From NCBI GenBank assembly GCA_964544755.1, contig CAZJDL010000001.1:5512-69511 (forward strand): a stretch of DNA of 64,000 nucleotides, read 5' to 3'. Position 1 is the stretch's first letter, and every line of letters starts with the position of its first letter. Below the pieces are notes generated by a model, which worked only from the letters and a program-made list of their open reading frames with translations, did no database searches and was not told the DNA's origin. This stretch comes from an uncultured Pseudomonadales bacterium (GTDB taxonomy: Bacteria; Pseudomonadota; Gammaproteobacteria; Pseudomonadales; JAUIET01). Below, piece by piece: positions 6,872 through 20,636 of this stretch. The position numbers and the translations under genes are program-made.

Positions 6872-8137
6872 ATGCATGCAATAAGATGGCTACTTTATAT
6901 TCTTCTTGCCTTGCTGCTGGTCTTGTTGCTTGGTGCAGCACTCGCTGCCTGGCTGATGCTGCAGAGCCAGCCGCTGGCGCACGCAACCGGCGCAGCACAG
7001 AATGACAGCGCTAACCAGCTCGACTTGATGCAGCTAGGTCGCATCACTCCCGAATCGACGCTGTTACTCGAACTCTCCGAAGCCGAATTAAACCAGTTGG
7101 CGCAGCAACAAATCGCCCAGGTCAGTCCCGCGGTCGAGGCGCGTGTCAGTATTCAAATTACACCGGGCGTCGCACAGGTGGATTTCAGCGGCGCATTGCC
7201 GCTGGCTATTGACAGACGCTATCTGAATGTTCGCAGCCGATACCACGTTGGCGACTCTCCCGCACAAATTAGTCTGACCGATCTACAAGTCGGCAAACTG
7301 CGCATACCCAACGGGTTGCAATCATTGTTACTCCCTTACGCCTTGAGTCACTGCCGCGCAGACAATGACTGCAACGCGGCTTTGACCGCCTATAAAAACG
7401 TGACGCAATTTGAACTCAATGAGGGTGCGTTGCGATTGCAGTACGCGCTTGAACCCGGCGGCCTGAGTGCGGAGGGACAGCAAGACCTGGCCAGCGAAGT
7501 CAGCCGTTTGACGCCGTATTTGCAGGAGCTGGCTGCCATGGCGCTGGAGCGGCAAGGCGAGCGCTTGAGCTTGCATGCGGCCATGCGACACGCGTTTTCG
7601 CTAGCCCAGCGGCAAAGCGTGCGCAGCAACGATGCTGTTGCGGAGAATCGCTCGGCGTTGTTGGCGTTGGCAGCCATGGGCGCCGACCCGCGGGTGCTGG
7701 ACTTACTCAACATGAGCGCGCTGCGCGAACAGACCGAGCAATTCGGCAGTCTCTACCTGCGCGGCCGCAAAGACCTGGCGCAGCACTTCCTCACCTCTGC
7801 CGCGCTGTACCTGCTGGGGGGCAGCGAGCTGAGCGAATACCTGGGAGTTTACAAGGAACTTGACGATGTCGATAAGGGCAAACCGTTCGGGGTGGGCGAT
7901 CTGGTAGCCGATCGCGTCGGCATTCGCCTTGCACAACATGCCACCGAGTCGAAACCTTCAGCGCTGCGCATACAAAGCCAGCTGATTACCGCCGCGTCAG
8001 CAGACGCCTATTTGCTGACAGACGCCACGCTGATGCAGCTGGAAGCCCGCTATCAAGGGGCGAACGGCATCGATGTGCCTGGACTCACCGAGCGCATCGA
8101 CAAATTGCTCGCCGAGCTGCCACTGCTGCAGCAGTAG
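6872..8137 (+). CDS. hypothetical protein with an N-terminal transmembrane anchor
   Basis: 421-aa ORF with a strongly hydrophobic N-terminus (LLYILLALLLVLLLGAALAAWLML). I recognise no catalytic motif. Confidence 0.6.
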   Translation: MHAIRWLLYILLALLLVLLLGAALAAWLMLQSQPLAHATGAAQNDSANQLDLMQLGRITPESTLLLELSEAELNQLAQQQIAQVSPAVEARVSIQITPGVAQVDFSGALPLAIDRRYLNVRSRYHVGDSPAQISLTDLQVGKLRIPNGLQSLLLPYALSHCRADNDCNAALTAYKNVTQFELNEGALRLQYALEPGGLSAEGQQDLASEVSRLTPYLQELAAMALERQGERLSLHAAMRHAFSLAQRQSVRSNDAVAENRSALLALAAMGADPRVLDLLNMSALREQTEQFGSLYLRGRKDLAQHFLTSAALYLLGGSELSEYLGVYKELDDVDKGKPFGVGDLVADRVGIRLAQHATESKPSALRIQSQLITAASADAYLLTDATLMQLEARYQGANGIDVPGLTERIDKLLAELPLLQQ

Positions 8138-8265
8138 CGATTACGCACCGCATTGCACGGCGCCCGCTTCACATTGCAGCCTTTAGATCTACCTTCTATA
8201 CTTCAGTAAGCGCTGCAATAGAGATCTGCAAGCTGTTAATGCTACTTTCGCAATAATTAAATCAA

Positions 8266-10746
8266 ATGAGCCAACCGCAACATATTTTGCTAGCGCACCC
8301 GGATGAGCACAACCTGTATCGCATCAGGCGAGTCTTAAACGAGCGTGGCTTTCTAAACCTGATCGAGTCCGCAGGCGACCAACATACAATCAATGCGCTC
8401 AACGAATATGCATTTGACGCCGTCGTGGTTAACGTCGAACTGGGCATGCTCGATGCCTGGCGCCTGACACGCTTGATTCGCTCGGGCGCACTGAACACCA
8501 AGGCGAACACGCCAGTATTTATTGTATCAGCAACATTTAGCGAGCAGATCGCGCTGGCGACCGCCAAAGAATTTGAGGTCAACGCGTTTATACCCCTTGA
8601 CCAGGCGCACAAATTGCCGCGCCTGATGGAAGACATGTTTAGCCGCGGCGAAATCGAGCCGCCCAAGACCTCTATTCTCATTATCGAAGACTACGCCGAC
8701 ACCGCCAAGCTGGTTGAGCGCGTGCTAAAAAACCGCTTTGTTATTCAGTGCGCCAACGACGGCGAAGCCGGGCTGGAGGCGTGGAAAGAGGGCCGGCACG
8801 ACATTGTGCTGCTTGACCTGATGCTACCGAAGATGTCGGGCGAAGATGTGCTGCGTGAAATTTTGACCATCAAACCTACCCAATCGGTCATTATGATGAC
8901 CGCCTTCGGCAGCCCGGAGAAAGCCGGTAGTCTCATCGTCGGCGGCGCCGTTGATTTTATTGCCAAGCCGTTTCGCGCTGAACAATTGCGCCACGTTTGT
9001 AATATCGCCGCGCACCGGGAAGACTATATTGTCAGCAACCAGCAGTTCGAAGCGCGGCAGAAAGAACTGGCATCCGAAAAGGAACGTGCGCTGGTCACTC
9101 TCAAGTCGATCGGCGACGGTGTCATTACTACTAACGCCAAGGCCAAGGTGGATTATCTGAATCCGGTGGCCGAGCATCTGACCGGCTGGCTAAACGCGGA
9201 AGCCCACGGCAAGCCACTGGGTGAAATCTTCAAGACCTACCATGAATATTCGCGCGTACCGGCCGTCAGCCCGCTGGAGCGATGCCTGAATGAAAAGCGT
9301 TCAATACATTCCAAATCCAATATTCTGCTGCGCAGCCGGCAGGGCCTCGAGTTGGTGATTGAACATTCTGCTTCACCTATTCGCGACAGCAATAATGAGA
9401 TTGTCGGCGCGGTCATGGTGTTTCAAGACAATACAGAAGCGCGCAATCTTGAGAAGCAGCTGACCTATCATGCCAGTCATGACCCATTAACCGGCTTGAA
9501 GAATCGTCAGGTGTTCGACCAGGAAGTTAGCGTGTCATTGAAAGACAGCCATAGCTCACAAGTAGAACATGCGCTGTGCCATATCGACGTTAACGAATTC
9601 AAAATGATTAACGAAAGCCGTGGCCACGGCGCGGGCGACAAGTTACTACAGGAAGTCGCACAAATACTCATCAACAAAGTGCGCGCCCCTAGCGATGCGA
9701 TTGCCCGTTTGAGCGGCCACGAATTTGGTGTGCTGCTACGCTTTTGTCCGATCGATGCCGCCACGCGAATTTGTGAAAACATTTGCAGGGCGTTTGAAGC
9801 GTTTAATTTCAAAACAGGCCGTACTGAATATCAGATCACCGTGTCGATTGGGATTGCACAAGTCAATCAGGACAGCCTCGACTTCCAGGACGTCTTCGCC
9901 GCCTCGCAAGCCGCCTGCTACAAAGCGAAAAATCGCGGCGGCAACCGGGTGCATGTTTTTTCAGCGAACGATGACGAACTCTTGCAGCGGCGTAGCGAAG
10001 TGCAAGTTGCGTCAGAAATTGTGCAAGCAGAACGTGAGAACCGCTTCCAACTCTACTGCCAAAAAATTAAATCCTTGACCGACCCGGACGAAGTCAGTTT
10101 TGAAGTGTTGTTGCGTATGCGGGGCGAGAATAACGAGCTGATTTCGCCAGCACATTTCTTACCCGCCGCCGAACGCTTTAATTTAACCCCACAAATAGAT
10201 CGCTGGGTCGTGCGCAATGCGTTTCAATGGCTGGCAGACAACAAGAGCAAGCTCGATTCGCTGAGCCACTTTGCGATTAACCTGTCGGGCCTGTCGCTGG
10301 GCGACGAGAATTTTTACGATTATATTGCACAACAATTTACCCGCACCGGCGTACCCGCCGATAAGATTTGCTTCGAGATAACCGAAACCGCCGCGGTAAA
10401 GAACTTTAAACTCGCCGGCAGTTTTATCGACGCCATCCGTGAGCTGGGCTGCCGCTTTGCGCTCGACGATTTTGGCACCGGCATGTCGTCCTTTGCATAC
10501 TTGAAAAAACTGAAGGTCGATTTTCTTAAAATCGACGGCATCTTCGTCAAAGACATTCTGCAAGACCCCATCGACCTCGCGATGGTGCGCTCGATCAACG
10601 ATATTGGTCACGTTTCAGGACTTAAAACGATTGCCGAGTTCGTCGAAAACAAGGCGATTGAAGAAAAACTGCGCGAGGTCGGTGTCGACTATGTGCAAGG
10701 CTACGGCATCGACAAACCGAACCCGATTGATGATACACGCTGTTAA
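8266..10746 (+). CDS. response-regulator-type c-di-GMP protein: pseudo-REC, REC, PAS, degenerate GGDEF, EAL
   Basis: Two receiver-like domains. The first has Asn at the phospho-acceptor position (DAVVVNVEL); the second is canonical (DIVLLDLMLP). A PAS domain follows, then a GGDEF domain with SGHEF in place of GGDEF, and an EAL domain (EVLLR, DDFGTG). Confidence 0.85.
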   Translation: MSQPQHILLAHPDEHNLYRIRRVLNERGFLNLIESAGDQHTINALNEYAFDAVVVNVELGMLDAWRLTRLIRSGALNTKANTPVFIVSATFSEQIALATAKEFEVNAFIPLDQAHKLPRLMEDMFSRGEIEPPKTSILIIEDYADTAKLVERVLKNRFVIQCANDGEAGLEAWKEGRHDIVLLDLMLPKMSGEDVLREILTIKPTQSVIMMTAFGSPEKAGSLIVGGAVDFIAKPFRAEQLRHVCNIAAHREDYIVSNQQFEARQKELASEKERALVTLKSIGDGVITTNAKAKVDYLNPVAEHLTGWLNAEAHGKPLGEIFKTYHEYSRVPAVSPLERCLNEKRSIHSKSNILLRSRQGLELVIEHSASPIRDSNNEIVGAVMVFQDNTEARNLEKQLTYHASHDPLTGLKNRQVFDQEVSVSLKDSHSSQVEHALCHIDVNEFKMINESRGHGAGDKLLQEVAQILINKVRAPSDAIARLSGHEFGVLLRFCPIDAATRICENICRAFEAFNFKTGRTEYQITVSIGIAQVNQDSLDFQDVFAASQAACYKAKNRGGNRVHVFSANDDELLQRRSEVQVASEIVQAERENRFQLYCQKIKSLTDPDEVSFEVLLRMRGENNELISPAHFLPAAERFNLTPQIDRWVVRNAFQWLADNKSKLDSLSHFAINLSGLSLGDENFYDYIAQQFTRTGVPADKICFEITETAAVKNFKLAGSFIDAIRELGCRFALDDFGTGMSSFAYLKKLKVDFLKIDGIFVKDILQDPIDLAMVRSINDIGHVSGLKTIAEFVENKAIEEKLREVGVDYVQGYGIDKPNPIDDTRC

Positions 10747-10747
10747 A

Positions 10748-10781
10748 CCTAGTGCACTGTAACGAATAAACTGCACACTAG
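10748..10781. repeat. 34-bp inverted repeat, left copy (CCTAGTGCACTGTAACGAATAAACTGCACACTAG)
   Basis: It is the exact reverse complement of 16690-16723. It starts 1 nt after the TAA of the upstream gene and ends 13 nt before the stop codon of the last gene of the bracketed operon. Confidence 0.95.
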
Positions 10782-10794
10782 AAACCGCGCGCGA

Positions 10795-11613
10795 CTAGTC
10801 AGTCGGCACTGCGCGGATCGGTTTACCGGTATACTCGATATCGTCGCAGCGCAGTGGCAAGAAGGAGCCCTGCGGGCGATCGATATTATCGACGTAACAG
10901 GCTTCAATACCGGAACTCACAATCGCCGCAGAAACATTTTTTAATTGCTCGGGGCTAAAACCCTGATCCGTACCGAAGGCGGCGACGACGCCATTCATAT
11001 TCATTTGCTCGCCATACTGCGCGCTCAAATATGCTTCGATTTCTACCGCCAGCTTCTCATAGGGGCCGATAGGAAAACCCAGTTCACGCGCGTAAGCCCA
11101 TAGTATTTCCACCCGCTCGTCGCCTTTGACCAGTGGCCGGGCGAAGCCGGTGATATTGGGCCGACCTCTTCTTCGAGAGACTTCAAGCTCCACAATTTCT
11201 TTGACCGGCATTCCTTGCAGGCGCTTCGCGTAGGCGGAATGGAGGAATTCGCAGCCTTTCAAAATAGTGCCGCCGCCGTAGACTTCGGAGTAGGCTGCTT
11301 GGATACCGGCCGCTATCGCGGCTGCGTCCGGGCAATTTGCCTCCCCCCCCAGGGCGCCAATCTGGTTACACCATATTCTGGAGTCAGGCCAACTTTGAAA
11401 AATAAAAACCGCTTCTATCCAGTCGGCAATCTTTCGTTCCGGCATTTTTCCGGTCACATTTTGCACATGAATCTGCATGTAGGAATACTTCCCAATCACG
11501 CCATCCAGCAAATTAAGACCGTACGAAAACGCGCCCTTACCGAGTATCCAGCCGCCCGCGGCGCTGTAAACGTTGTTTCTGCGCTGATCCCAATAGTCGG
11601 TTTTATTCGGCAT
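10795..11613 (-). CDS. divergent citryl-CoA lyase / citrate-synthase-fold protein, paralog B
   Basis: Start set at MPNKTDYW, overlapping the stop of the upstream paralog by 11 nt. Residues line up by eye with the citrate synthase/ATP-citrate-lyase C-terminal module (ITGFARPLVKGDERV versus GFGHRVYKxxDPR; C-terminal LPLRCDDIEY versus RHPWDDISY). Confidence 0.6.
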   Translation of the reverse strand: MPNKTDYWDQRRNNVYSAAGGWILGKGAFSYGLNLLDGVIGKYSYMQIHVQNVTGKMPERKIADWIEAVFIFQSWPDSRIWCNQIGALGGEANCPDAAAIAAGIQAAYSEVYGGGTILKGCEFLHSAYAKRLQGMPVKEIVELEVSRRRGRPNITGFARPLVKGDERVEILWAYARELGFPIGPYEKLAVEIEAYLSAQYGEQMNMNGVVAAFGTDQGFSPEQLKNVSAAIVSSGIEACYVDNIDRPQGSFLPLRCDDIEYTGKPIRAVPTD

Positions 11614-12436
11614 TTTCGGTCTCGATGTGATAGTGATCATCGGCGGGAAACGGCACCGATGTGATCGGTTTGCCGACCAGTTCCATGCCATGCGCCAATA
11701 AGCCAGGCGCCGAACACAACTGGTATAGCCCCGCACCCGTCTTGGGATTAAAGCCGAGGTCACATAACACGGCGGCAAACAGCCCGGTTGGCAGCCAACC
11801 TATATTGGCGTGTCGCAGTCCAGCGACGAAACCGGCTGCCCAATGCATACACCCGCCAGCGCCCGGTAACGCCATCAGTGTGTTGGCGATTTTGCCGGTC
11901 AAGGGGTCGATACCATCAAACAAACGGCCAAAGCCGGGCACGCCTATCTCGCTACCGGGGTCAAGCCGGCTAGCCATGGTTGCGGCAAGCTGTTCCGGAT
12001 CGTCGCGGTTGTTGCGTACAATAAAGCGCATCGTCGGCAATACATCCTGCGCACCGCAATGTTCGCCGGCGAGAATTGACAGCGATATTGGCAATATCAA
12101 GGCGGGATCGGTTTTGCCAACAGCAGCTAACACTGCGGCGCGCGTCGCGGGGTGACGCGGACCCGGCGACATAAAGGCCACCATCAGGCAGCCAAACAGT
12201 TCGGCCTGTGCTTTATTTGGCAGCTCGCCGCGAAACAATAAGTAAACCGTATCCGAGAAACTACGTTTGCGTACCAGGTCAAGCAGATTGTAACCGTGGC
12301 AAAAGGCGTTTTCGGTTAAGTAGCTGTTTTCGGGATCACGTTCTTCAAGCCAGATTTTGGTCACCGTTTTTTTGGTGAAGGACTCGTCGCGTCGTTGAAT
12401 TTTCCGGGCTGGTGGTGCGTCGGCTTCGCTACTCAC
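11603..12436 (-). CDS. divergent citryl-CoA lyase / citrate-synthase-fold protein, paralog A
   Basis: GTG start with GGAG 8 nt upstream. Shows the HGYNLLDL...YLLFRGELP motif typical of citrate synthase N-terminal regions, then LMVAFMSPGPRHPAT, LAGEHCGAQD, VPGFGRLFDGIDPL and APGLLAHGMEL, in the same order as the ACLY/CCL motifs. Confidence 0.6.
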   Translation of the reverse strand: MSSEADAPPARKIQRRDESFTKKTVTKIWLEERDPENSYLTENAFCHGYNLLDLVRKRSFSDTVYLLFRGELPNKAQAELFGCLMVAFMSPGPRHPATRAAVLAAVGKTDPALILPISLSILAGEHCGAQDVLPTMRFIVRNNRDDPEQLAATMASRLDPGSEIGVPGFGRLFDGIDPLTGKIANTLMALPGAGGCMHWAAGFVAGLRHANIGWLPTGLFAAVLCDLGFNPKTGAGLYQLCSAPGLLAHGMELVGKPITSVPFPADDHYHIETENAE

Positions 12437-12455
12437 AACGGTTGCTCCTGAAGAG

Positions 12456-14663
12456 TTATTGGTTCAGACGGTAACTGAACTCGGCGAATATCGCTCTGCC
12501 TTCAAGACGGTAATCACCAGGTATTTCTTCGACCGGGGCGGCACTGGTAGCACCCCTGCTGGGCGCGAAGGCGTCTTTATCAAACACGTTGCGCGCCACG
12601 ATAGCGAATTCCAGGTTCTTGAACAATTTCTTACGGCGTAAAACTACATCAACAAGCGCATAGTCATCAACATCATCGCGCTGGTCCGATGCCGCTCTAT
12701 CTCTATCGGCCACCCAATTCGCGGTGGTACTTAAACTCCAGTCTGGCAGAAAATTCCAGGTCGCGGCCAGATACAACTGCCAGCCCGGCGCGTCTGCCAC
12801 GTGGTCACTGGTTGACCTATCTTCGCTGTGTTGCCACGCATAGTTGCCATCCAAAGAAAGAGAGTCGCTGGCTTTCCAGGAGTATTCAACTTCAAAACCA
12901 TAACCGTCCTGGTCAACTGCATTTTTGGCTTGCAGTACCCCACCCGCTGTTGCAGGCGCTACAAAACGGATCAAGTCCCGCATCCGGTAGGTAAACAGGT
13001 TGAGCTTGATATTCGATGTTGGCGTTGGCAGATAATCGAAGGCAAGTTCGATCGTGTCGATCATTTCGGGGTCTATGTTTTCATCACCGTGCAATACCGG
13101 GTTGGTTTCCGATAGTTCCAGAAAAGAGGGTGCCCGAAACGCCCGGCCGTACAGTAACTTCGAACTCAGGTTATAGCTGGTCGCCCACACCAGGGCCAGC
13201 CGCGGGTTGATTGTGCTGCCAAAGTCAGAATAGTCGTCGAAGCGCACACCGGCGGTAAGGCGCCAGTCATTGGCCAGCGCCCATTCGTCCTGCAAGGATG
13301 CGAACAAAATATTACGCTCACTGTCCTCGACAAACACGCTTTCGAAATTGGACGTATCAGTCAACGTACCATCGACGCTGGTTTCGTTCCCGTCGAGCAC
13401 GCCGGGGCCAAAATTTCTGGTTTCTTTCGGATCGCCTTCCTGGCGCTGGAAGCCCGCGGAAAACCGCAGTTTATGTTTGTCCCAGCCGGAATAATAAGTG
13501 ACAAGCTCTGCTGTGTGCTTTTGTTCCTCCCCACCGGGGTTACCTAAAACGCCATCCGGAAACGCCACCACTCGGGAAGCAGGAGGAAGTGAGGTGGTTA
13601 AACTCCCCGTCTCGTTATCAATCAAGGCAAGCGTTCCAGCCGGCAATAAGGTGTATTTGTTATCTGAGTCGAACAGGCTCAATGAGAGGCTCGTTTCATA
13701 ACGCCAATTTTCCGACAGCTCGTCATTGTAGGCCAGCGAAAAAAGATAATAATCGCCGTTTAGCTCACCGCCGGGATCGAGCGCATGCAAAACGCCATCG
13801 CCGACTCCCGTATCGTTTTGAACCCACGCCAGGAATGACGTTTTCCAGTGTTCGTTGTTTAATGCGATGCGGGCATTCAAAATATCGTAGCGCGTAGCAA
13901 GAGGGCCAGGCGCGTTGGAGGCATTGATGCCAAAAGCGCTGTCCCCGAGTGTTTGCAGGTCTGCATCAACAATACGATCGTCATCGCCGTTGCTTTTTGC
14001 ATATTCCAGGCTGGTGGAGAACTGCCATGTATCACCCACTGCGCCGCCAGCTTGTAGCCAGTAATCTTGCTTGTCGAATGACCCATAGCGTACGCCGGCT
14101 TCAATACCGTCGATGTCCGAAGGGCTTTTTGAGATGACATTGATGACCCCGGCAAACGCGTCGGCGCCAAAAACGGCCGAGCCGGGGCCGCGGATGATCT
14201 CGATGCGCTTGATATTTTGCACCGGCATGGTAAATCCGGTCGGCAGGCCACCGTTGAAGACTTGCCGGAGTGGAACACCGTCGATCAACAGCAAAACCTG
14301 CGGGTTTTGCGCCGTATGAATGCCACGAATGGAATAAACCGAACTGAGTACGTTATTGCTGGAGAGTGACACATGCAAGCCCGGCACCATTTCCAGCGCC
14401 TCTTGCAAATTGGTTGCGCCGCGATTGCGAATGTCGGCCTCGCTAACGACGCTGGCGATAGATGGCGCCAACCTGATCGACTGCTCCGTGCCGGTGGAGA
14501 TGCTGATCGTCTCGTCGTCGCCGTACAGCTCCAGCAAATCGTCTTCGTCAAAATCCGAGTATGCGTGAGCAGGCACAAGGCCGAACAACGCAACAATTCC
14601 CGTTAGCAGGATTTCACGGGTACGCTTGCCGACCGGCAATTGATCATAAAATGAGCGACTCAT
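12456..14663 (-). CDS. TonB-dependent outer-membrane receptor
   Basis: Signal peptide, TonB-box-like DETISISTG, plug domain (IEIIRGPGSAVFGADAFAGVINVISK) and a long beta-barrel. It lies 19 nt upstream of paralog A. Confidence 0.88.
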   Translation of the reverse strand: MSRSFYDQLPVGKRTREILLTGIVALFGLVPAHAYSDFDEDDLLELYGDDETISISTGTEQSIRLAPSIASVVSEADIRNRGATNLQEALEMVPGLHVSLSSNNVLSSVYSIRGIHTAQNPQVLLLIDGVPLRQVFNGGLPTGFTMPVQNIKRIEIIRGPGSAVFGADAFAGVINVISKSPSDIDGIEAGVRYGSFDKQDYWLQAGGAVGDTWQFSTSLEYAKSNGDDDRIVDADLQTLGDSAFGINASNAPGPLATRYDILNARIALNNEHWKTSFLAWVQNDTGVGDGVLHALDPGGELNGDYYLFSLAYNDELSENWRYETSLSLSLFDSDNKYTLLPAGTLALIDNETGSLTTSLPPASRVVAFPDGVLGNPGGEEQKHTAELVTYYSGWDKHKLRFSAGFQRQEGDPKETRNFGPGVLDGNETSVDGTLTDTSNFESVFVEDSERNILFASLQDEWALANDWRLTAGVRFDDYSDFGSTINPRLALVWATSYNLSSKLLYGRAFRAPSFLELSETNPVLHGDENIDPEMIDTIELAFDYLPTPTSNIKLNLFTYRMRDLIRFVAPATAGGVLQAKNAVDQDGYGFEVEYSWKASDSLSLDGNYAWQHSEDRSTSDHVADAPGWQLYLAATWNFLPDWSLSTTANWVADRDRAASDQRDDVDDYALVDVVLRRKKLFKNLEFAIVARNVFDKDAFAPSRGATSAAPVEEIPGDYRLEGRAIFAEFSYRLNQ

Positions 14664-14791
14664 TGTTGCTTGTTATCACCCCCGTGACGCATCATTTTTT
14701 ACGATAGCGAGCTACTGGGAAAACCAGGTACTCTTTTCAAGAGAGTATAAATATAGTCGATATTCTACAATTTGCTTATAAAGACGAGTTT

Positions 14792-16669
14792 TTAGTGCAT
14801 TTTTTGCAATACTCTGAGCCGTTCCCCCATCGGTGGCGCTTCCTCAGGGTCGATATAAACGTCTATAACGCTTGGCTTGCTCGATTTTAACAAGGCGCAG
14901 AAATCGATTTGGCCCAGGTCATCGGGAGTTTTGACGCGAATGCCGTTTGCTCCCATCGCAATGGCCACCGCCGCAAAATCAATCGCCGGCAGGTACTGCC
15001 CGACCTGCTCACCGCCGCCAAGCCGCTGCCCGTGTTTGACCATACCGAGTGATTGATCATTCAACACGATGAATAGCACCGGCAAGTTGTGCTCAACGGC
15101 AACCGTCAGCTCCTGGCCGCTCATCAACATGCTGCCATCGCCGGTGATACACACGGTCGGCGCCTTGCGGCTGCCTAACGAGGTACCTACGCTGGCGCCA
15201 ATCGCCCAGGCCATCGAACCGTAACCCATTGCGGTACGCACGGTGCCGACAAATTTACGTTGCAGATAATGCAGCCCCCAACACCACGCATTACCCGCGT
15301 CCAGCAGAAACCGGGTGTGGTTCGGCAAGACATGGGCCAAATCGTACATCAAACGTTGTGGTTTAAGCGGCACGGCAGCGGATAAGCACAGCTCGGCTTT
15401 GTCATAGGTAAGTTGCGTAGGTAGCAGGTCGGGCGCTAACTTCACCAGCCCTTTAGCTGCAGGCGGCGTTTCGTCAACGGCATGCAATAGCACCGTGGTG
15501 GGTTTGTGTCGCGGTACAACCCGCAGCAATTTACCAAACACCGCCTTGAGATTGCCGAACACGTGCAAATAGGCCATCGGCGACTGCATGAAGTTTTCGG
15601 CACAGCTTTCGACATGGATGAGCCTGTCGTTCAGGATAACGTTGTCCCAACCCGCCGTTGCAATCTCACTCAGCCCGGTGCCTATGGCGATAACGTTCGC
15701 GACGTCGGATCGTTCCAGGGCGGCGCGCGCGCTGGCATGTCCCGCCAAGCCAAAAACGCCGCGGTACTGCGGATGATAAGCATTGACCCATTGCTTGCCG
15801 CCAGGTGTCGCAACGATTAATGCGTTAACCGCTTCGGCGAGTTGAATAATTTCATCGATCGCTTCGCCGCAGCTTTCGCCGATGAGAAACACCGGCCGCT
15901 GCCGCGCGCGCATGGCATTTAACAAGTCTGTTTCCAGTTGCGCGACCGCCCGCTGGTCGATAACCGGCGGCGAGCGCAGCTGAGTCGCAACGTTAAAGAA
16001 GGTGGGCACAGCAACGATCGACCCTTTAAGGATATCTAACGGGATGCTCAAATGCACCGGCCCGCGCGGCTGGCTGAAGGCGCTGATCAACGCGCTGACC
16101 AGCTTGCTTTCCAACTGCGAGGGATGCGACACCAGCGAATTGTAGCGCGTACAGTGCTCGAACATACCCACCACATCGATGGCATCGCTGGACGACTCCT
16201 GCAACCCCAGCCGGCCAAAATTGGGTAAAGCGATTTGCGGCGTGATCACCAACATCGGAATGTGATCGGCATAGGCCGATGCGACACCGGTCAACAAGTT
16301 GGTGCTTCCTGGGCCCGTGGTCGCGCAGCAAACCGCGAGCTTACCGGTTTCACGCGAGTAGCCGTCGGCCATAAAGGCAGCACCGGCTTCATGGCGTGCG
16401 AAAACGGGCGTCGGCCCATGCCGCGAGCGCTTGCTTTTGCGCGCCAGTGCCCGCTGACCATAATTGATCGTGGCCAACCCGGCACCGCGTTGCTTCCTGG
16501 CTATCGCATCAAAAAACGGTTCTATCGCCCCACCTTGAATACCAAAAACATACTCCACACCTATTTGCGCGAGGTACTCGACGATAAGGTCAGAGTAGGT
16601 GTGATTGGTGGCCGCAACGGGGTTTTGCTGAAGTGCATTTTGCAAAGCTTCTACTACATTATCAGTCAT
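14792..16669 (-). CDS. thiamine-diphosphate-dependent enzyme, acetolactate synthase large-subunit-like
   Basis: PYR domain with the catalytic-Glu motif RHEAG, GPGSTNL, and the ThDP-binding GDGS...NDQ motif. GGAG lies 8 nt upstream of the ATG. No ALS small subunit is adjacent. Confidence 0.85.
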   Translation of the reverse strand: MTDNVVEALQNALQQNPVAATNHTYSDLIVEYLAQIGVEYVFGIQGGAIEPFFDAIARKQRGAGLATINYGQRALARKSKRSRHGPTPVFARHEAGAAFMADGYSRETGKLAVCCATTGPGSTNLLTGVASAYADHIPMLVITPQIALPNFGRLGLQESSSDAIDVVGMFEHCTRYNSLVSHPSQLESKLVSALISAFSQPRGPVHLSIPLDILKGSIVAVPTFFNVATQLRSPPVIDQRAVAQLETDLLNAMRARQRPVFLIGESCGEAIDEIIQLAEAVNALIVATPGGKQWVNAYHPQYRGVFGLAGHASARAALERSDVANVIAIGTGLSEIATAGWDNVILNDRLIHVESCAENFMQSPMAYLHVFGNLKAVFGKLLRVVPRHKPTTVLLHAVDETPPAAKGLVKLAPDLLPTQLTYDKAELCLSAAVPLKPQRLMYDLAHVLPNHTRFLLDAGNAWCWGLHYLQRKFVGTVRTAMGYGSMAWAIGASVGTSLGSRKAPTVCITGDGSMLMSGQELTVAVEHNLPVLFIVLNDQSLGMVKHGQRLGGGEQVGQYLPAIDFAAVAIAMGANGIRVKTPDDLGQIDFCALLKSSKPSVIDVYIDPEEAPPMGERLRVLQKMH

Positions 16670-16689
16670 TGGCTGCTCCAGGTAAAAAG

Positions 16690-16723
16690 CTAGTGTGCAG
16701 TTTATTCGTTACAGTGCACTAGG
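16690..16723. repeat. 34-bp inverted repeat, right copy (CTAGTGTGCAGTTTATTCGTTACAGTGCACTAGG)
   Basis: It is the exact reverse complement of 10748-10781 and lies 21 nt upstream of the ThDP-enzyme start codon, next to its Shine-Dalgarno sequence. Confidence 0.95.
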
Positions 16724-17138
16724 GCCTGCTAACACTATTTTCATCATTATTGCCGGAGACCATTTTTCGGCCACCCAGGCAGAAGGAGCGAGCTGTAGTG
16801 ACTCTACATAAGCGATTGATAACGCCGCTGGGCGAGAAATGGTTCCGCCCCTGCGGATTGCGCCTGCTGCTTCTTATCCTCGCCAGCGGCATGCCGCAAG
16901 CTGGCTTATTCTTTTCGTTTAAAATTAATTTTTGGTGACAAACTGCGGCGTGGCCACAACAAGGGCGAGCATGGTATCGTTCGCATTTAGAATAGTCACT
17001 TCGTATCACTAAAGTTTAACAAGATTAAACAATCTACAAGATGGCGGCTAAAAACCATACAAGACAGTCGGCAAGCGCGGAATGCCGAAGTTTTTCACCC
17101 TCAGAATGAGGTAAGTCCCGGATTATTGGCTAGACTGT

Positions 17139-18167
17139 ATGGATACTTTTGTCGTGATGTGCCATCGCGCAGAACCTCCGGCCCCAGGAAAAGCGTTGTT
17201 TGTGAATTGCTTTTGTTCACGCCTTACTCGCATCGTTAAGCATTTAACGTGGTGGAGGCTGCTGTGCTGCGCTTTGTTTTTTGCGTTGACGCAACCTGCG
17301 TTTGCCGCACCGCTGAAATTCGCCGTTGTTGTGCCTGAAACCGCAAGCAAAGCGCAGGTCATTTATGACGAAATCGTACAGGGCCTACGCAGCGCGGAAA
17401 ATGTTGAGCTAACGCTTTACCGGCTCAGCAGCGCCGCGAAGCGCGACGAAGCGGCAGTGCACAAATGGTTAAGCGGGCAAAACGCGAATGCCGTAATCAG
17501 CATCGGCAGGAACGCACATAACCTGGTAAAAAACTTCGCCACTGATATACCGCTTATCGCCGGCGGAATATCCATTTCGCCAAACCACACCTCTGGCGTC
17601 AGCCTGACCGGCGATCCACAGGAGTTTTTCAAAAACCTGGTGCGAATTGCACCCAAGGTCGAACGGATTTTTCTGATTTACAACAATGCGATCAATGGCT
17701 GGTGGGTAGATTCAGCACGCGCCGCCGCCAGTGAACACAACATAGATCTGCAAGCTTTGCAGGCGGAAGACGTAAAGTCAGGCGCCAAATTGTATCAGCG
17801 CGTATTGAACGGCGCGCGTTCGGGAAAGGACGCCATATGGATTCCGTTAGTCAGTATTGTACCGTCAAAAACAGTACTGCCAATGGTACTGAGGAAGGCA
17901 TGGGAAAAAAACCTCGTGGTATTTACCAATAGCGCGGCCCATGCCCGACAAGGCGCTTTATTCTCGATGTATCCCGACAATGTGGCACTGGGTGAACAGT
18001 TGATAGAGCTGGCCATCGAGCAAACGACAACCAGCGGCGCCAACGTCAGGGTGGCGCCGGTCAAAAAATTGAAAACGGCTTTCAACTTACGCACGGCGTC
18101 CCACCTGGGACTGAAATATTCGTTACGGCGGGGCGGTGGTTTTGACCGAATTTATTCAGCACAGTAA
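17139..18167 (+). CDS. periplasmic ABC-type substrate-binding-like protein (likely sensor partner); start uncertain
   Basis: Signal peptide (WWRLLCCALFFALTQPAFA/AP) followed by a binding-protein-like fold. It overlaps the downstream histidine kinase gene by 32 nt. The true start may be an internal GTG or TTG. Confidence 0.55.
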   Translation: MDTFVVMCHRAEPPAPGKALFVNCFCSRLTRIVKHLTWWRLLCCALFFALTQPAFAAPLKFAVVVPETASKAQVIYDEIVQGLRSAENVELTLYRLSSAAKRDEAAVHKWLSGQNANAVISIGRNAHNLVKNFATDIPLIAGGISISPNHTSGVSLTGDPQEFFKNLVRIAPKVERIFLIYNNAINGWWVDSARAAASEHNIDLQALQAEDVKSGAKLYQRVLNGARSGKDAIWIPLVSIVPSKTVLPMVLRKAWEKNLVVFTNSAAHARQGALFSMYPDNVALGEQLIELAIEQTTTSGANVRVAPVKKLKTAFNLRTASHLGLKYSLRRGGGFDRIYSAQ

Positions 18168-19770
18168 TCCGCAACAGCTGACGCAGCAAGCTGTCACTCA
18201 TGAAAAACGCAGCAGCTTTCGACGCCAGCTGTTTCTGATTTTTGCCACTTGCGGGGTCGCTGTCGCGCTCGCCGTGGCAATCGCCTACTCCTATTCCACC
18301 AGTGAATATATTCGCGACTTGTATGTAAGCCAGGCACTGCAGGCGACCCAGAACTTTGCGCAACTAAGCGAGTTGGCGCTACTCCTCGACAGTGGTGAAA
18401 ATGCCGAGGACGCAGCAAAGAGCACCTTGTCATTCCCGTTGATTAAATATGTGTCGATTGTTAGCGGCAATGGAAAAATGCTGTTTGACCAAGGTCAGTG
18501 GCATGGCGAATATCTGCAGCTTGGCAACCAGCGGCCACGTGAACCCGGCGCCGCGCTGATTAGTGAACAGGACAACGCCTGGCACTTTTGGGCGCCGGTT
18601 TTCTCCCAAACTGCCGAGGCGCAAGCTGATGACGGCCTGATTTTGACCGGCGACAAGCAAAAAAGCTACCTTGGCTTTGTTTATGTGGTGCAAGACAAAA
18701 AGGAATTTCTCGCCAGCCAGTACGAAAGCTTTAGGCGCAACGCCATGATCGGTTTAATGTGCGCGGTGGCCTTCATTATCCTGCTGCACTTCGCCATAAA
18801 TCGCTTGCTGGCGCCCATGACCAGACTGGCAGCGGTAATGGACCGCACGCGGCAGGGCGATACCGCCGCGCGCGCTACGCCCGAGGGAGCGGTAGAGCTG
18901 GTCAACATGGCGGAAATCTACAATAGCGTGATGGACAATCTTGCCGATCGTGACGTACGCCTGATGAGGCAAAAAGATGAACTGGAGTCTGAAGTCACGC
19001 TGCGTACGCAGGAACTTGTGCAGGCGCGCGACGAAGCCATTGACGCCAGCCGCCACAAGTCGGAATTTTTGTCTAACATCAGCCATGAGCTGCGCACACC
19101 GCTGCAGGCGATCATGGGCTATTCTGACATTCTGCACGAGAGACTCGAGGACGAAGGCTTCGATGATTTATGCGAAGACACCGAATGCATTACCGACAAC
19201 GCCAACCACCTGTTGAACTTGATAAACAGCATTCTGGACCTCGCAAAAATCGAAGCCGGCCGCATGGATATTCATTTGGCTTATGTCAAAATTAATAACG
19301 TGGTACGCCAGGCTCAGGAAACGATTCTGCCATTGATGCAGAAGAGCGCCAACGAACTGGTTGTGGAGATCGAAGAAACTGACCAGATGATTAAGATCGA
19401 CGAAACCAAGCTACTGCAAATATTACTCAATCTTTTGAGTAACGCCGGCAAGTTTACCCAGATGGGCCGGGTAACGGTCAGCGTGCGGCAAAGCCAGGAC
19501 GAATTAAATATCGAAGTCGCAGATACCGGCATTGGTATGGAGCAGCAACACTTAAATGTGATTTTCGACGCGTTCCGCCAGATTGACGGCAGCGCGACAC
19601 GAGAATTTGAGGGCACGGGTTTGGGCTTATCGATCACGCGGCGCTTCTGCGAGGTGATGGGCGGCTACATCAGCGTGGTCAGTCAGCCCGGTCGTGGCTC
19701 CACCTTCAGCGTGCGTTTTCCGTTGCCAATTCGCGCCAGCGACAATAGTGAAAACATCGACTTGGCTTAG
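18136..19770 (+). CDS. sensor histidine kinase (TM, periplasmic region, HAMP, HisKA, HATPase)
   Basis: H-box (SHELRTPL), N-box (LLNLLSNAGKF), and G-boxes (DTGIGM, GTGLGLSI). No response regulator gene is directly adjacent. Confidence 0.85.
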   Translation: MVLTEFIQHSNPQQLTQQAVTHEKRSSFRRQLFLIFATCGVAVALAVAIAYSYSTSEYIRDLYVSQALQATQNFAQLSELALLLDSGENAEDAAKSTLSFPLIKYVSIVSGNGKMLFDQGQWHGEYLQLGNQRPREPGAALISEQDNAWHFWAPVFSQTAEAQADDGLILTGDKQKSYLGFVYVVQDKKEFLASQYESFRRNAMIGLMCAVAFIILLHFAINRLLAPMTRLAAVMDRTRQGDTAARATPEGAVELVNMAEIYNSVMDNLADRDVRLMRQKDELESEVTLRTQELVQARDEAIDASRHKSEFLSNISHELRTPLQAIMGYSDILHERLEDEGFDDLCEDTECITDNANHLLNLINSILDLAKIEAGRMDIHLAYVKINNVVRQAQETILPLMQKSANELVVEIEETDQMIKIDETKLLQILLNLLSNAGKFTQMGRVTVSVRQSQDELNIEVADTGIGMEQQHLNVIFDAFRQIDGSATREFEGTGLGLSITRRFCEVMGGYISVVSQPGRGSTFSVRFPLPIRASDNSENIDLA

Positions 19771-19812
19771 CTGCCAGCATGTCTGGACGTGAAGTTATTT
19801 TGCCGTGTGCCC

Positions 19813-20535
19813 TTAGTCCTTTATACTGGGTTTGACTAACGAACGCAGCCAATTCAACGTGCTGTTGCCCTTCAGCAACACATAATCGAGACGGTCATAT
19901 TCCGTTGCCAGCGCAACCGCATCGGTAAAAAAATCGGCTCTGGTCGTCAACTTTTCTGCGCTATCCAGTTCTTTCACCACCTTCGCCGGATTGCCGGCAA
20001 CCACCACGTTAGCCGGCACGTCTCCAACCACAACCGCGCGTGCGGCAACAATGCTGTTGTCTCCAATGCTGACCCCCTTCAGCACGGTCGCATGATCTCC
20101 CAGCCACACGTTATTACCAATATGTACCGGCGTTACCTCACGCGGCCGTTCGATCCGGTTGTAAACACCATGCCAATCGGAATCTGTAATGTAAACACCG
20201 TGGGCCAGCATGCAACTGTCACCAATCACAATTTCATCACAAGCGCTGATTCTGACACCTGGCGTAATCATAACCGCAGCGCCAATTTGAATACGCCCGC
20301 AGTCCGGCACCTGGTTCCACACCCCGATACGCGTGTGGCTGTCTTTTTCGGCGACAATGGTCGCCGACTCACCGATGGAAATATTCGGTCCCGAGATGTG
20401 AATATACCAGGGGTTCATCAGCGTATAATGGTCGCCGAGATGATCCAGGTGTGGTCTTACGTAGTGGCGCACATACCAACGGCGAAATCGCAGATAGTAT
20501 TTTTTGACGTAGTAGGGTCGCAAATCTTTGCGCAT
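19813..20535 (-). CDS. hexapeptide-repeat (LbH) acyl/acetyltransferase
   Basis: Repeated [LIV]G-x4 hexapeptide pattern (IGNNVWLGDHATVLKGVSIGDNSIVAARAVV). Confidence 0.7.
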   Translation of the reverse strand: MRKDLRPYYVKKYYLRFRRWYVRHYVRPHLDHLGDHYTLMNPWYIHISGPNISIGESATIVAEKDSHTRIGVWNQVPDCGRIQIGAAVMITPGVRISACDEIVIGDSCMLAHGVYITDSDWHGVYNRIERPREVTPVHIGNNVWLGDHATVLKGVSIGDNSIVAARAVVVGDVPANVVVAGNPAKVVKELDSAEKLTTRADFFTDAVALATEYDRLDYVLLKGNSTLNWLRSLVKPSIKD

Positions 20536-20636
20536 TTATTGACGCCGCAGTGAAGAGTGAGCCGGTGTATTCGTTGTGGCGCGACAGTCTCGCACAAAGT
20601 ACGCAGTATGAAAACTGAACGTAAGCACCGCTGTCC

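Follow-up and report, generated by a model that had tools for sequence, protein, structure and literature searches.

The DNA examined here is a 64-kb window of contig CAZJDL010000001.1 from an uncultured Pseudomonadales bacterium, and all coordinates refer to this window. Positions 8266-19770 hold seven genes in three blocks. On the plus strand lies a receiver-containing GGDEF-EAL protein (hereafter the regulator). This is followed by a minus-strand operon, bracketed by an inverted repeat and transcribed in the order thiamine diphosphate (ThDP)-dependent enzyme, TonB-dependent receptor, CCL1 and CCL2, the last two being proteins of the citrate-synthase fold. Across a divergent spacer, and again on the plus strand, are genes for a solute-binding protein (SBP) and a histidine kinase (HK). 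Open reading frames (ORFs) were checked against the positions given in an earlier note on this DNA and domains were assigned with Pfam and NCBIfam; the ORFs of all seven genes were found where the note had placed them (Table 1). The note regarded the operon and its repeats as an insertion into a pre-existing two-component locus. Comparison with relatives suggests that the region is probably one ancestral seven-gene functional module rather than an island-interrupted two-component locus.

Table 1. Genes and other features of the region, in coordinates of the 64-kb window
Feature	Position	Strand	Basis or remark
Regulator, 826 aa: pseudo-receiver REC1 (residues 1-125), canonical receiver REC2 (137-244), PAS, GGDEF, EAL	8266-10746	plus	Pfam, NCBIfam, translation
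Left arm of the perfect 34-nt inverted repeat	10748-10781		Begins 1 nt past the regulator stop; ends 13 nt before the CCL2 stop
CCL2, 272 aa as called: citrate-synthase fold, weakly citryl-CoA-lyase-like	10795-11613	minus	NCBIfam (sub-cut-off), PDB 6hxp
CCL1: citrate-synthase-fold protein of a widespread, well-conserved family	11603-12436	minus	Pfam Citrate_synt, PDB 6hxp
TonB-dependent outer-membrane receptor: signal peptide, plug, barrel	12456-14663	minus	Pfam Plug and TonB_dep_Rec_b-barrel
Cytoplasmic ThDP-dependent enzyme, acetolactate-synthase/ScyA-related carboligase superfamily; first gene of the operon	14792-16669	minus	Three TPP_enzyme domains
Right arm of the 34-nt inverted repeat	16690-16723		20 nt upstream of the ThDP ATG; edge of a 172-nt lineage-specific stretch
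Divergent spacer	16724-17138		Alignments with L029 and L001
Secreted PF04392 solute-binding protein	17139-18167	plus	Pfam, signal peptide, homologues
Membrane histidine kinase: first transmembrane segment, periplasmic sCache_4, second transmembrane segment, HAMP, HisKA, HATPase_c	18136-19770	plus	Pfam, topology

Relatives were collected through the SBP, taking one genome per species and keeping 10 kb on each side, and the window proteins were located by tblastn in the resulting 24 loci. The order regulator > [CCL2 CCL1 receptor ThDP]< > SBP > HK is present in all 18 loci that reach both flanks, across SBP identities from 53% down to 31%, and the shortened loci agree as far as they reach. The source scaffold (L025) and a metagenome locus (L032) have the same order, bringing the total to 20 of 20 loci with both flanks. 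In every such relative the interval between regulator and SBP holds the same four gene families, in some of them five, and among these relatives no empty site was found at which the segment is missing from the same locus.

Across distant bacteria the seven families (ThDP enzyme, receptor, CCL1, CCL2, SBP, HK and regulator) co-occur in several gene orders. L030/L031 and L035 read ThDP > CCL > CCL > receptor > SBP, followed by a fused HK-REC-Hpt-REC-GGDEF-EAL protein of 1408-1489 aa, and in L033 and L036 the receptor and SBP precede a fusion of the same type. Fusion of HK and GGDEF-EAL into one protein of 1408-1537 aa is seen in several lineages (L030, L033, L035, L036 and L039). L034 shows a ThDP remnant, then SBP, a hybrid HK and a separate REC-EAL protein. 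L037-L039 were reached from CCL1 homologues and not from the SBP. In Ca. Tenderia electrophaga (L037), SBP > HK > REC-PAS-GGDEF-EAL are directly adjacent and the operon is convergent. In Trichloromonas (L038) the order is SBP > HK > receptor > CCL1 > CCL2, then < ThDP < regulator on the other strand, and Aurantivibrio infirmus (L039) has a fused HK-GGDEF-EAL < SBP < ThDP beside receptor > CCL1 > CCL2. The SBP-HK pair is placed inside the operon in L038, L043, L064 and L102. The adjacency of SBP, HK and regulator, together with the gene fusions, therefore argues for one pathway. The earlier note's suspicion that these three proteins belong to one signalling module is borne out by the adjacency in L037 and by the fusions, and the same evidence indirectly supports phosphotransfer between the window kinase and regulator.

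CCL1 served as the anchor for an independent set of 80 metagenome loci, of which the 25 with at least 6 kb on both sides were counted. CCL2 and the receptor accompany CCL1 in 22 of the 25, and the ThDP enzyme and at least one signalling gene are each present in 19 (a kinase in 17, a GGDEF-EAL protein in 15). SBPs are undercounted in this sample, since tblastn missed PF04392 proteins that Pfam detects. The three loci of the set without the module hold a stand-alone CCL1 paralogue near acyl-CoA synthetase and FadB-like genes. Only rarely does CCL1 occur without CCL2 and a TonB-dependent receptor. A literature search on this gene combination found nothing relevant.

The SBP matches PF04392 with 30.1 bits (cut-off 25.9) and has a cleavable signal peptide, with cleavage between QPAFA and A; no PDB relative was found at E<=1. 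PF04392 proteins of known structure bind Trp, Tyr and Phe (PMC10443332). The SBP gene always directly precedes that of the kinase. In the window the two genes overlap by 32 nt, a figure from the earlier note that is right if GTG 18136 is the kinase start, and the overlap is kept in L025, L026 and L029. The two transmembrane segments of the kinase flank its periplasmic sCache_4 domain. Profile searches detected no REC or Hpt domain in the window kinase, and homologues elsewhere have REC-Hpt-REC-GGDEF-EAL fused to the kinase. Among NCBIfam models, those of the BarA/TorS/LuxQ type give the kinase core its highest scores, which stay below the equivalog cut-offs (TorS 210 bits vs 676.5; LuxQ 207.7 vs 1200). 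No ABC transporter genes were found in the neighbourhood, and the secreted SBP, the kinase with a periplasmic domain and the lack of neighbouring ABC genes are together the pattern of a binding-protein-dependent sensor kinase. With no ABC permease or ATPase nearby, the PF04392 protein is likely to be the ligand-sensing partner of the kinase. Pfam and NCBIfam searches of the neighbouring genes revealed no other HK or response regulator on either side of the locus, which agrees with the earlier description of a regulator lacking an adjacent kinase and an SBP/HK pair lacking an adjacent regulator.

The earlier label of the regulator as REC-REC is correct as a statement of fold, with the qualification that REC1 is a pseudo-receiver. 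The REC profile finds only a weak match in the first 133 aa (24.2 bits, cut-off 30.2), which have Asn at the acceptor position, IP in place of the usual KP and no conserved Lys. Pfam assigns a full REC domain to the second receiver, ahead of PAS, GGDEF and EAL. Motifs were surveyed in 34 full-length regulator homologues, in all of which the Asp, Thr and Lys of REC2 are invariant (EDY, VLLDLML, MMTA and AKPF); in the same survey the Lys was missing from REC1. With HisKA and HATPase_c in the kinase and a receiver that has the acidic pocket, Asp, Thr and Lys, the pair has the make-up of a classical two-component system. The EAL catalytic motifs (EVL, AINLS, EITE, DDFGTG, LKID, EFVE and VQGY) are intact in the window regulator and invariant in the 34 homologues. 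The GGDEF motif reads SGHEF in the window (~9700-9730, residues ~480-488) and does not conform to GG(D/E)EF. SGHEF is shared by the window and the sub-clade nearest to it (7 of the 34 homologues), and the rest have the canonical motif. Cyclase activity thus appears to have been lost recently in the window's lineage, while the EAL motifs have stayed invariant, and most other homologues, which keep the canonical GGDEF, may be bifunctional. Since the cyclase half is degenerate in this lineage, the predicted output is hydrolysis of cyclic di-GMP (c-di-GMP). Pfam and NCBIfam detect no DNA-binding domain in the regulator, and against the PvrR model of NCBIfam it reaches 128 bits (cut-off 580).

The proteins of the minus-strand operon are less readily classified. 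CCL1 matches Pfam Citrate_synt at the cut-off (27.0 bits), with a best NCBIfam score of 86 bits against a cut-off of 212; CCL2 has no Pfam match and only sub-cut-off NCBIfam scores of 35-47 bits (best 47 vs 193). Both match the citryl-CoA lyase structure 6hxp (E=1e-15 for CCL1, E=1e-6 for CCL2). The catalytic His (HGGA), His (G-F/Y-G-H-R) and Asp were placed on 6hxp from what we take to be the general citrate synthase motifs. By this alignment CCL1 has one of three triad positions, reading EHCGA (first His kept), PGFG-RLF (the GFGH His missing) and LPTG (Asp to Thr), and CCL2 has all three replaced (VYGGG, GFARP and MNG). The CCL2 ORF reaches 11778, and gene callers place the start at 11613, as in the gene call for L025. 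CCL1 has more than 1000 homologues at ~50% identity in Gammaproteobacteria and Desulfobacterota-type lineages. In L053, L056, L060 and L107 a CCL1 paralogue occurs alone, lacking CCL2, receptor and signalling genes, and its neighbours are genes for an acyl-CoA synthetase and a FadB-like enoyl-CoA hydratase/3-hydroxyacyl-CoA dehydrogenase, a setting that points to CoA-thioester chemistry for the family. The ThDP enzyme falls under every NCBIfam cut-off (acolac_lg 272 vs 538; ScyA-related 246 vs 1000; Xsc 194 vs 676). Its nearest solved structures are BbmA/CsmA (E=2e-72); these names could not be traced in the searchable literature and no function was taken from them. The receptor reaches no NCBIfam equivalog.

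Part of the operon is variable between close relatives. Between L003 and L005, identity is 91-97% for regulator, ThDP enzyme, SBP and kinase and falls to 42-54% for CCL2, CCL1 and receptor. DNA homology between L003 (3606-6891) and L005 (2202-6920) stops at the regulator stop codon and resumes in the N-terminal part of the receptor (the plug). On the strength of these alignments, CCL2, CCL1 and the receptor barrel form an exchangeable cassette that is replaced between close relatives. The CCL genes of the window (cassette 10795-14663) are nearest to those of L012, whose flanks fall in a more distant group. The ThDP gene, in turn, can be lost. L120 (SRR26701711), 98% DNA-identical to the window, has a 1,622-bp deletion corresponding to window positions 15338-16959, with ~7 bp of microhomology at the junction. 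Codons 1-444 of the ThDP gene are missing as a result, as are the right repeat arm and 236 bp of the spacer; receptor, CCL1/2, SBP and kinase are intact. L002 (224-2814; 63% SBP identity) has no ThDP gene between receptor and SBP, only a spacer of ~350 bp, and this is a second loss, independent of L120. Accessory genes also occur within the module. A Sulfotransfer_3 sulfotransferase (E=3e-35; L005:3905-5179, also in L006-L008) lies between CCL1 and receptor in one sub-clade. Short-chain dehydrogenase/reductase (SDR) or aldolase-SDR genes are present in 14 loci, a lipid-A-type acyltransferase in five and a methyltransferase in four; L039 has a condensation-domain protein, and several loci (L037, L042 and L068) have a second ThDP enzyme. 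The variable tailoring genes, the cassette swap and the ThDP losses are hints of a biosynthetic rather than a catabolic role, with a small molecule that varies as the product.

Outside the module, the neighbouring genes encode an SrkA-like kinase, a 421-aa membrane protein, a hexapeptide acetyltransferase, a TrmB-like methyltransferase, a CysE-like protein, HemE, GltD and GltB. The 421-aa protein (6872-8137) is anchored in the membrane at its N terminus and matches nothing in Pfam or NCBIfam, and its gene is directly upstream of the regulator. That position is held in nearly all clade relatives (28-39% identity), and the protein is not found with the module in distant lineages.

How might such a module work? 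Domain content and gene order suggest that the receptor would carry a scarce or bulky ligand into the periplasm, where the secreted SBP, having no transporter partner, would bind it and modulate the sCache_4/HAMP kinase. The kinase would then phosphorylate the conserved Asp of REC2, and this phosphorylation would change the activity of the intact EAL phosphodiesterase, so linking ligand supply to the cellular level of c-di-GMP. The cytoplasmic ThDP enzyme and the citrate-synthase-fold pair would most likely make or convert the same ligand.

Several observations weigh against a seven-gene functional module. The housekeeping flanks (hemE, gltD, gltB and cysE-like) are likewise syntenic in the clade, so that clade synteny alone is a weak argument and the case rests on the distant, rearranged loci. 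In the most distant of these, matches of 30-36% reflect shared architecture and not necessarily orthology, and GGDEF-EAL and HisKA proteins are abundant paralogues. CCL1 and CCL2, lacking most of the triad, are possibly not enzymes of the expected kind. Variation of the SBP does not follow that of the swapped cassette (92% identity in SBP and 54% in receptor between L003 and L005), and clustering of 257 accessory ORFs found no recurrent inner-membrane transporter or exporter in the module; these two points argue against a simple cassette-specific ligand. The equal synteny of the adjacent housekeeping genes also invites the reading that common descent alone has kept the neighbourhood together, the operon being an unrelated uptake or metabolic unit that by chance has a kinase pair on one side and an orphan c-di-GMP regulator on the other. 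This is very improbable, as the association survives full reshuffling of order, strand and chromosomal context over phylum-level distances, and in L038, L043, L064 and L102 SBP and HK lie within the operon itself.

The insertion proposed in the earlier note would have a mobile or horizontally acquired, repeat-bracketed operon split an existing regulator/SBP/kinase array. The bracketing repeat on which it drew is real: its arms are 34 nt long, 100% complementary and lie exactly at both operon ends, with two copies observed in the 64-kb window against none expected. Excision would leave a co-directional regulator-SBP-HK array, and an adjacent SBP-HK-regulator array does exist in Ca. Tenderia. 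However, the repeat is missing in 18 of 18 relatives tested and in L029. The DNA of L029, 96% identical to the window over the ThDP gene, ceases to align precisely at 16690 and aligns again from 16863; between these points 81 unrelated nt take the place of the window's 172 nt, and the ThDP-SBP spacer of L029 has no repeat. The repeat is therefore younger than the gene arrangement and, judged from these alignments, was added very recently in this lineage and played no part in bringing that arrangement about. All relatives examined, down to 31% SBP identity, have the operon where the window has it. The note had proposed looking in relatives for a regulator directly beside the SBP/kinase pair, and had named intervening genes in all of them as the outcome on which its idea would fail; in the clade, intervening genes are always present. 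The four operon genes contain no transposase or integrase domains by Pfam and NCBIfam, and no target-site duplication was found, the outer flanks (ending in GCTGTTAAA on the left and beginning with GCCTGCTAAC on the right) forming no direct repeat. The G+C content does not deviate (0.48-0.60 in the operon vs 0.50-0.56 in the flanks), and the operon families accompany signalling genes in unrelated genomes. With the four families between regulator and SBP in every both-flank relative and the repeat younger than that arrangement, an insertion has next to no probability. Perfect inverted repeats at the two ends of an operon are not in themselves enough to identify an insertion.

What, then, is the repeat? 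Its arms were considered as a terminator or structured RNA and rejected, as they fold no better than shuffled sequences (z = +0.98 to -0.12) and have no Rfam match; no terminator-like site was found in 16600-17200. A dispersed REP or MITE element was likewise rejected, with two copies in 64 kb and no exact match to the 24-nt core in JGI metagenome contigs. The placement of the arms, with the ribosome-binding site and ATG of the ThDP gene inside the bracket and the spacer, the presumed promoter region, outside, resembles a cassette, and perfect arms could make the 5.9-kb operon invertible. A flip would uncouple the operon from the spacer and render all seven genes co-directional with the operon behind the regulator, and co-directional order exists in other lineages. 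Four independent short-read contigs terminate within an arm (L026-L028 in the right arm, L120 in the left). Such ends are expected wherever a repeat of at least 31 nt meets k-mer assembly (here 34 nt and k=31), and they also show that the repeat is real in several samples. Against inversion, a screen of the genes at ~5.8-24.7 kb of the window revealed no recombinase, and all relatives and the source scaffold L025 show a single orientation. A length of 34 nt is also near the lower limit for RecA-dependent exchange. An invertible operon is consequently decidedly unlikely.

The earlier note had also raised the possibility that the signalling system controls the operon by way of the divergent region between them. 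The 415 bp it gave for this region is correct from the inner repeat edge to the SBP ATG, but the full ThDP-to-SBP spacer is 469 bp. The divergent layout with this spacer is conserved in the clade. Within it, the half on the SBP side (~16890-17140) shows stronger conservation in L029 and L001 than the coding DNA next to it, and a motif at ~17120-17140 (TTGnCTAraCTkTA) is kept down to relatives with 50% protein identity. This conserved non-coding motif covers ATG 17139, and the true SBP start is therefore probably downstream. The spacer also contains a small palindrome (GTTTAAcaagaTTAAAC, ~17014-17030) and no convincing sigma-70 consensus. A known RNA linking regulator and operon, namely a c-di-GMP riboswitch, was considered and dropped, since neither this nor any other Rfam element was found in 8000-20600 at E<=5. 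Any control through the spacer would have to be indirect, given that the regulator lacks a DNA-binding domain and acts by turning over c-di-GMP. A shared divergent promoter region is not a conserved trait of the module, since other lineages have the operon in the same direction as the signalling genes, convergent with them or interleaved with them. The conserved motif adjoins the SBP gene and not the ThDP gene. A functional tie between signalling system and operon is thus supported in general, but the route proposed for it is not, and control mainly through the spacer is unlikely.

A seven-gene module of this kind is an uncharacterised variant of known signalling designs, those of TorT/TorS, LuxP/LuxQ, NspS/MbaA and RocS1/RocR. 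As in TorT/TorS and LuxP/LuxQ, a secreted, non-transport binding protein is encoded beside a membrane HK that it presumably controls. Unlike TorT and LuxP, the SBP of the module belongs to PF04392, and the kinase has no receiver or Hpt domain and scores far under the TorS and LuxQ cut-offs. The output also differs, being c-di-GMP turnover and not a DNA-binding regulator or LuxU/LuxO, and the module is tied to a TonB-dependent receptor and enzymes. In the NspS-MbaA system of Vibrio cholerae, a periplasmic binding protein acts directly on a membrane GGDEF-EAL phosphodiesterase. The module shares with it a periplasmic solute-binding protein that reports a small molecule to a c-di-GMP-metabolising protein, but interposes an HK and phosphotransfer to a cytoplasmic REC-GGDEF-EAL protein or, in other lineages, uses a single fused chain. 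An HK with a receiver protein that has an EAL (or GGDEF-EAL) output is known from RocS1/RocR, PvrS/PvrR and Legionella Lpl0330/Lpl0329. In contrast to these systems, the regulator of the module adds a pseudo-receiver and PAS, and a separate PF04392 protein and uptake and enzyme genes are present. The succession of degenerate receiver, PAS, degenerate GGDEF and EAL is akin to that of FimX-type proteins. The EAL domain of FimX is degenerate, whereas the window regulator has a second, canonical receiver and intact EAL catalytic motifs, which predict an enzyme and not a receptor for c-di-GMP.

Pyoverdine-type loci offer an analogy of another sort. There too the module finds a counterpart to the joint swapping of receptor barrel and CCL1/CCL2 between flanks that are 91-97% identical, and to the loss of a putative biosynthetic gene, here the ThDP gene, in some strains that keep the receptor. 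Unlike pyoverdine loci, the module has no nonribosomal peptide synthetase or known siderophore synthetase and its CCL proteins are without the citrate-synthase triad, so that the likeness is one of pattern only. A bolder reading, which we regard as doubtful, is that the module forms a circuit to make, re-import and sense a molecule. The ThDP carboligase, the CCL pair and the tailoring enzymes would build a strain-variable secreted metallophore or signal, the receptor would return it to the periplasm, and SBP and kinase would measure it there and set c-di-GMP. If this were true, the receptor/CCL swaps and ThDP losses would reflect type specificity and cheating, as in siderophore systems.

Carriers of these genes include marine Cellvibrionales/Pseudomonadales, Ca. 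Tenderia, Trichloromonas and, from the names of CCL1 homologues only, Desulfobulbaceae including Ca. Electrothrix. The analysis flags a large family of citrate-synthase-fold proteins without canonical catalytic residues that is paired with a TonB-dependent receptor. If the proposed module is real, it would represent a widespread and unstudied route by which the arrival of a receptor-imported compound in the periplasm is turned into a c-di-GMP decision, e.g., between attachment and motility.

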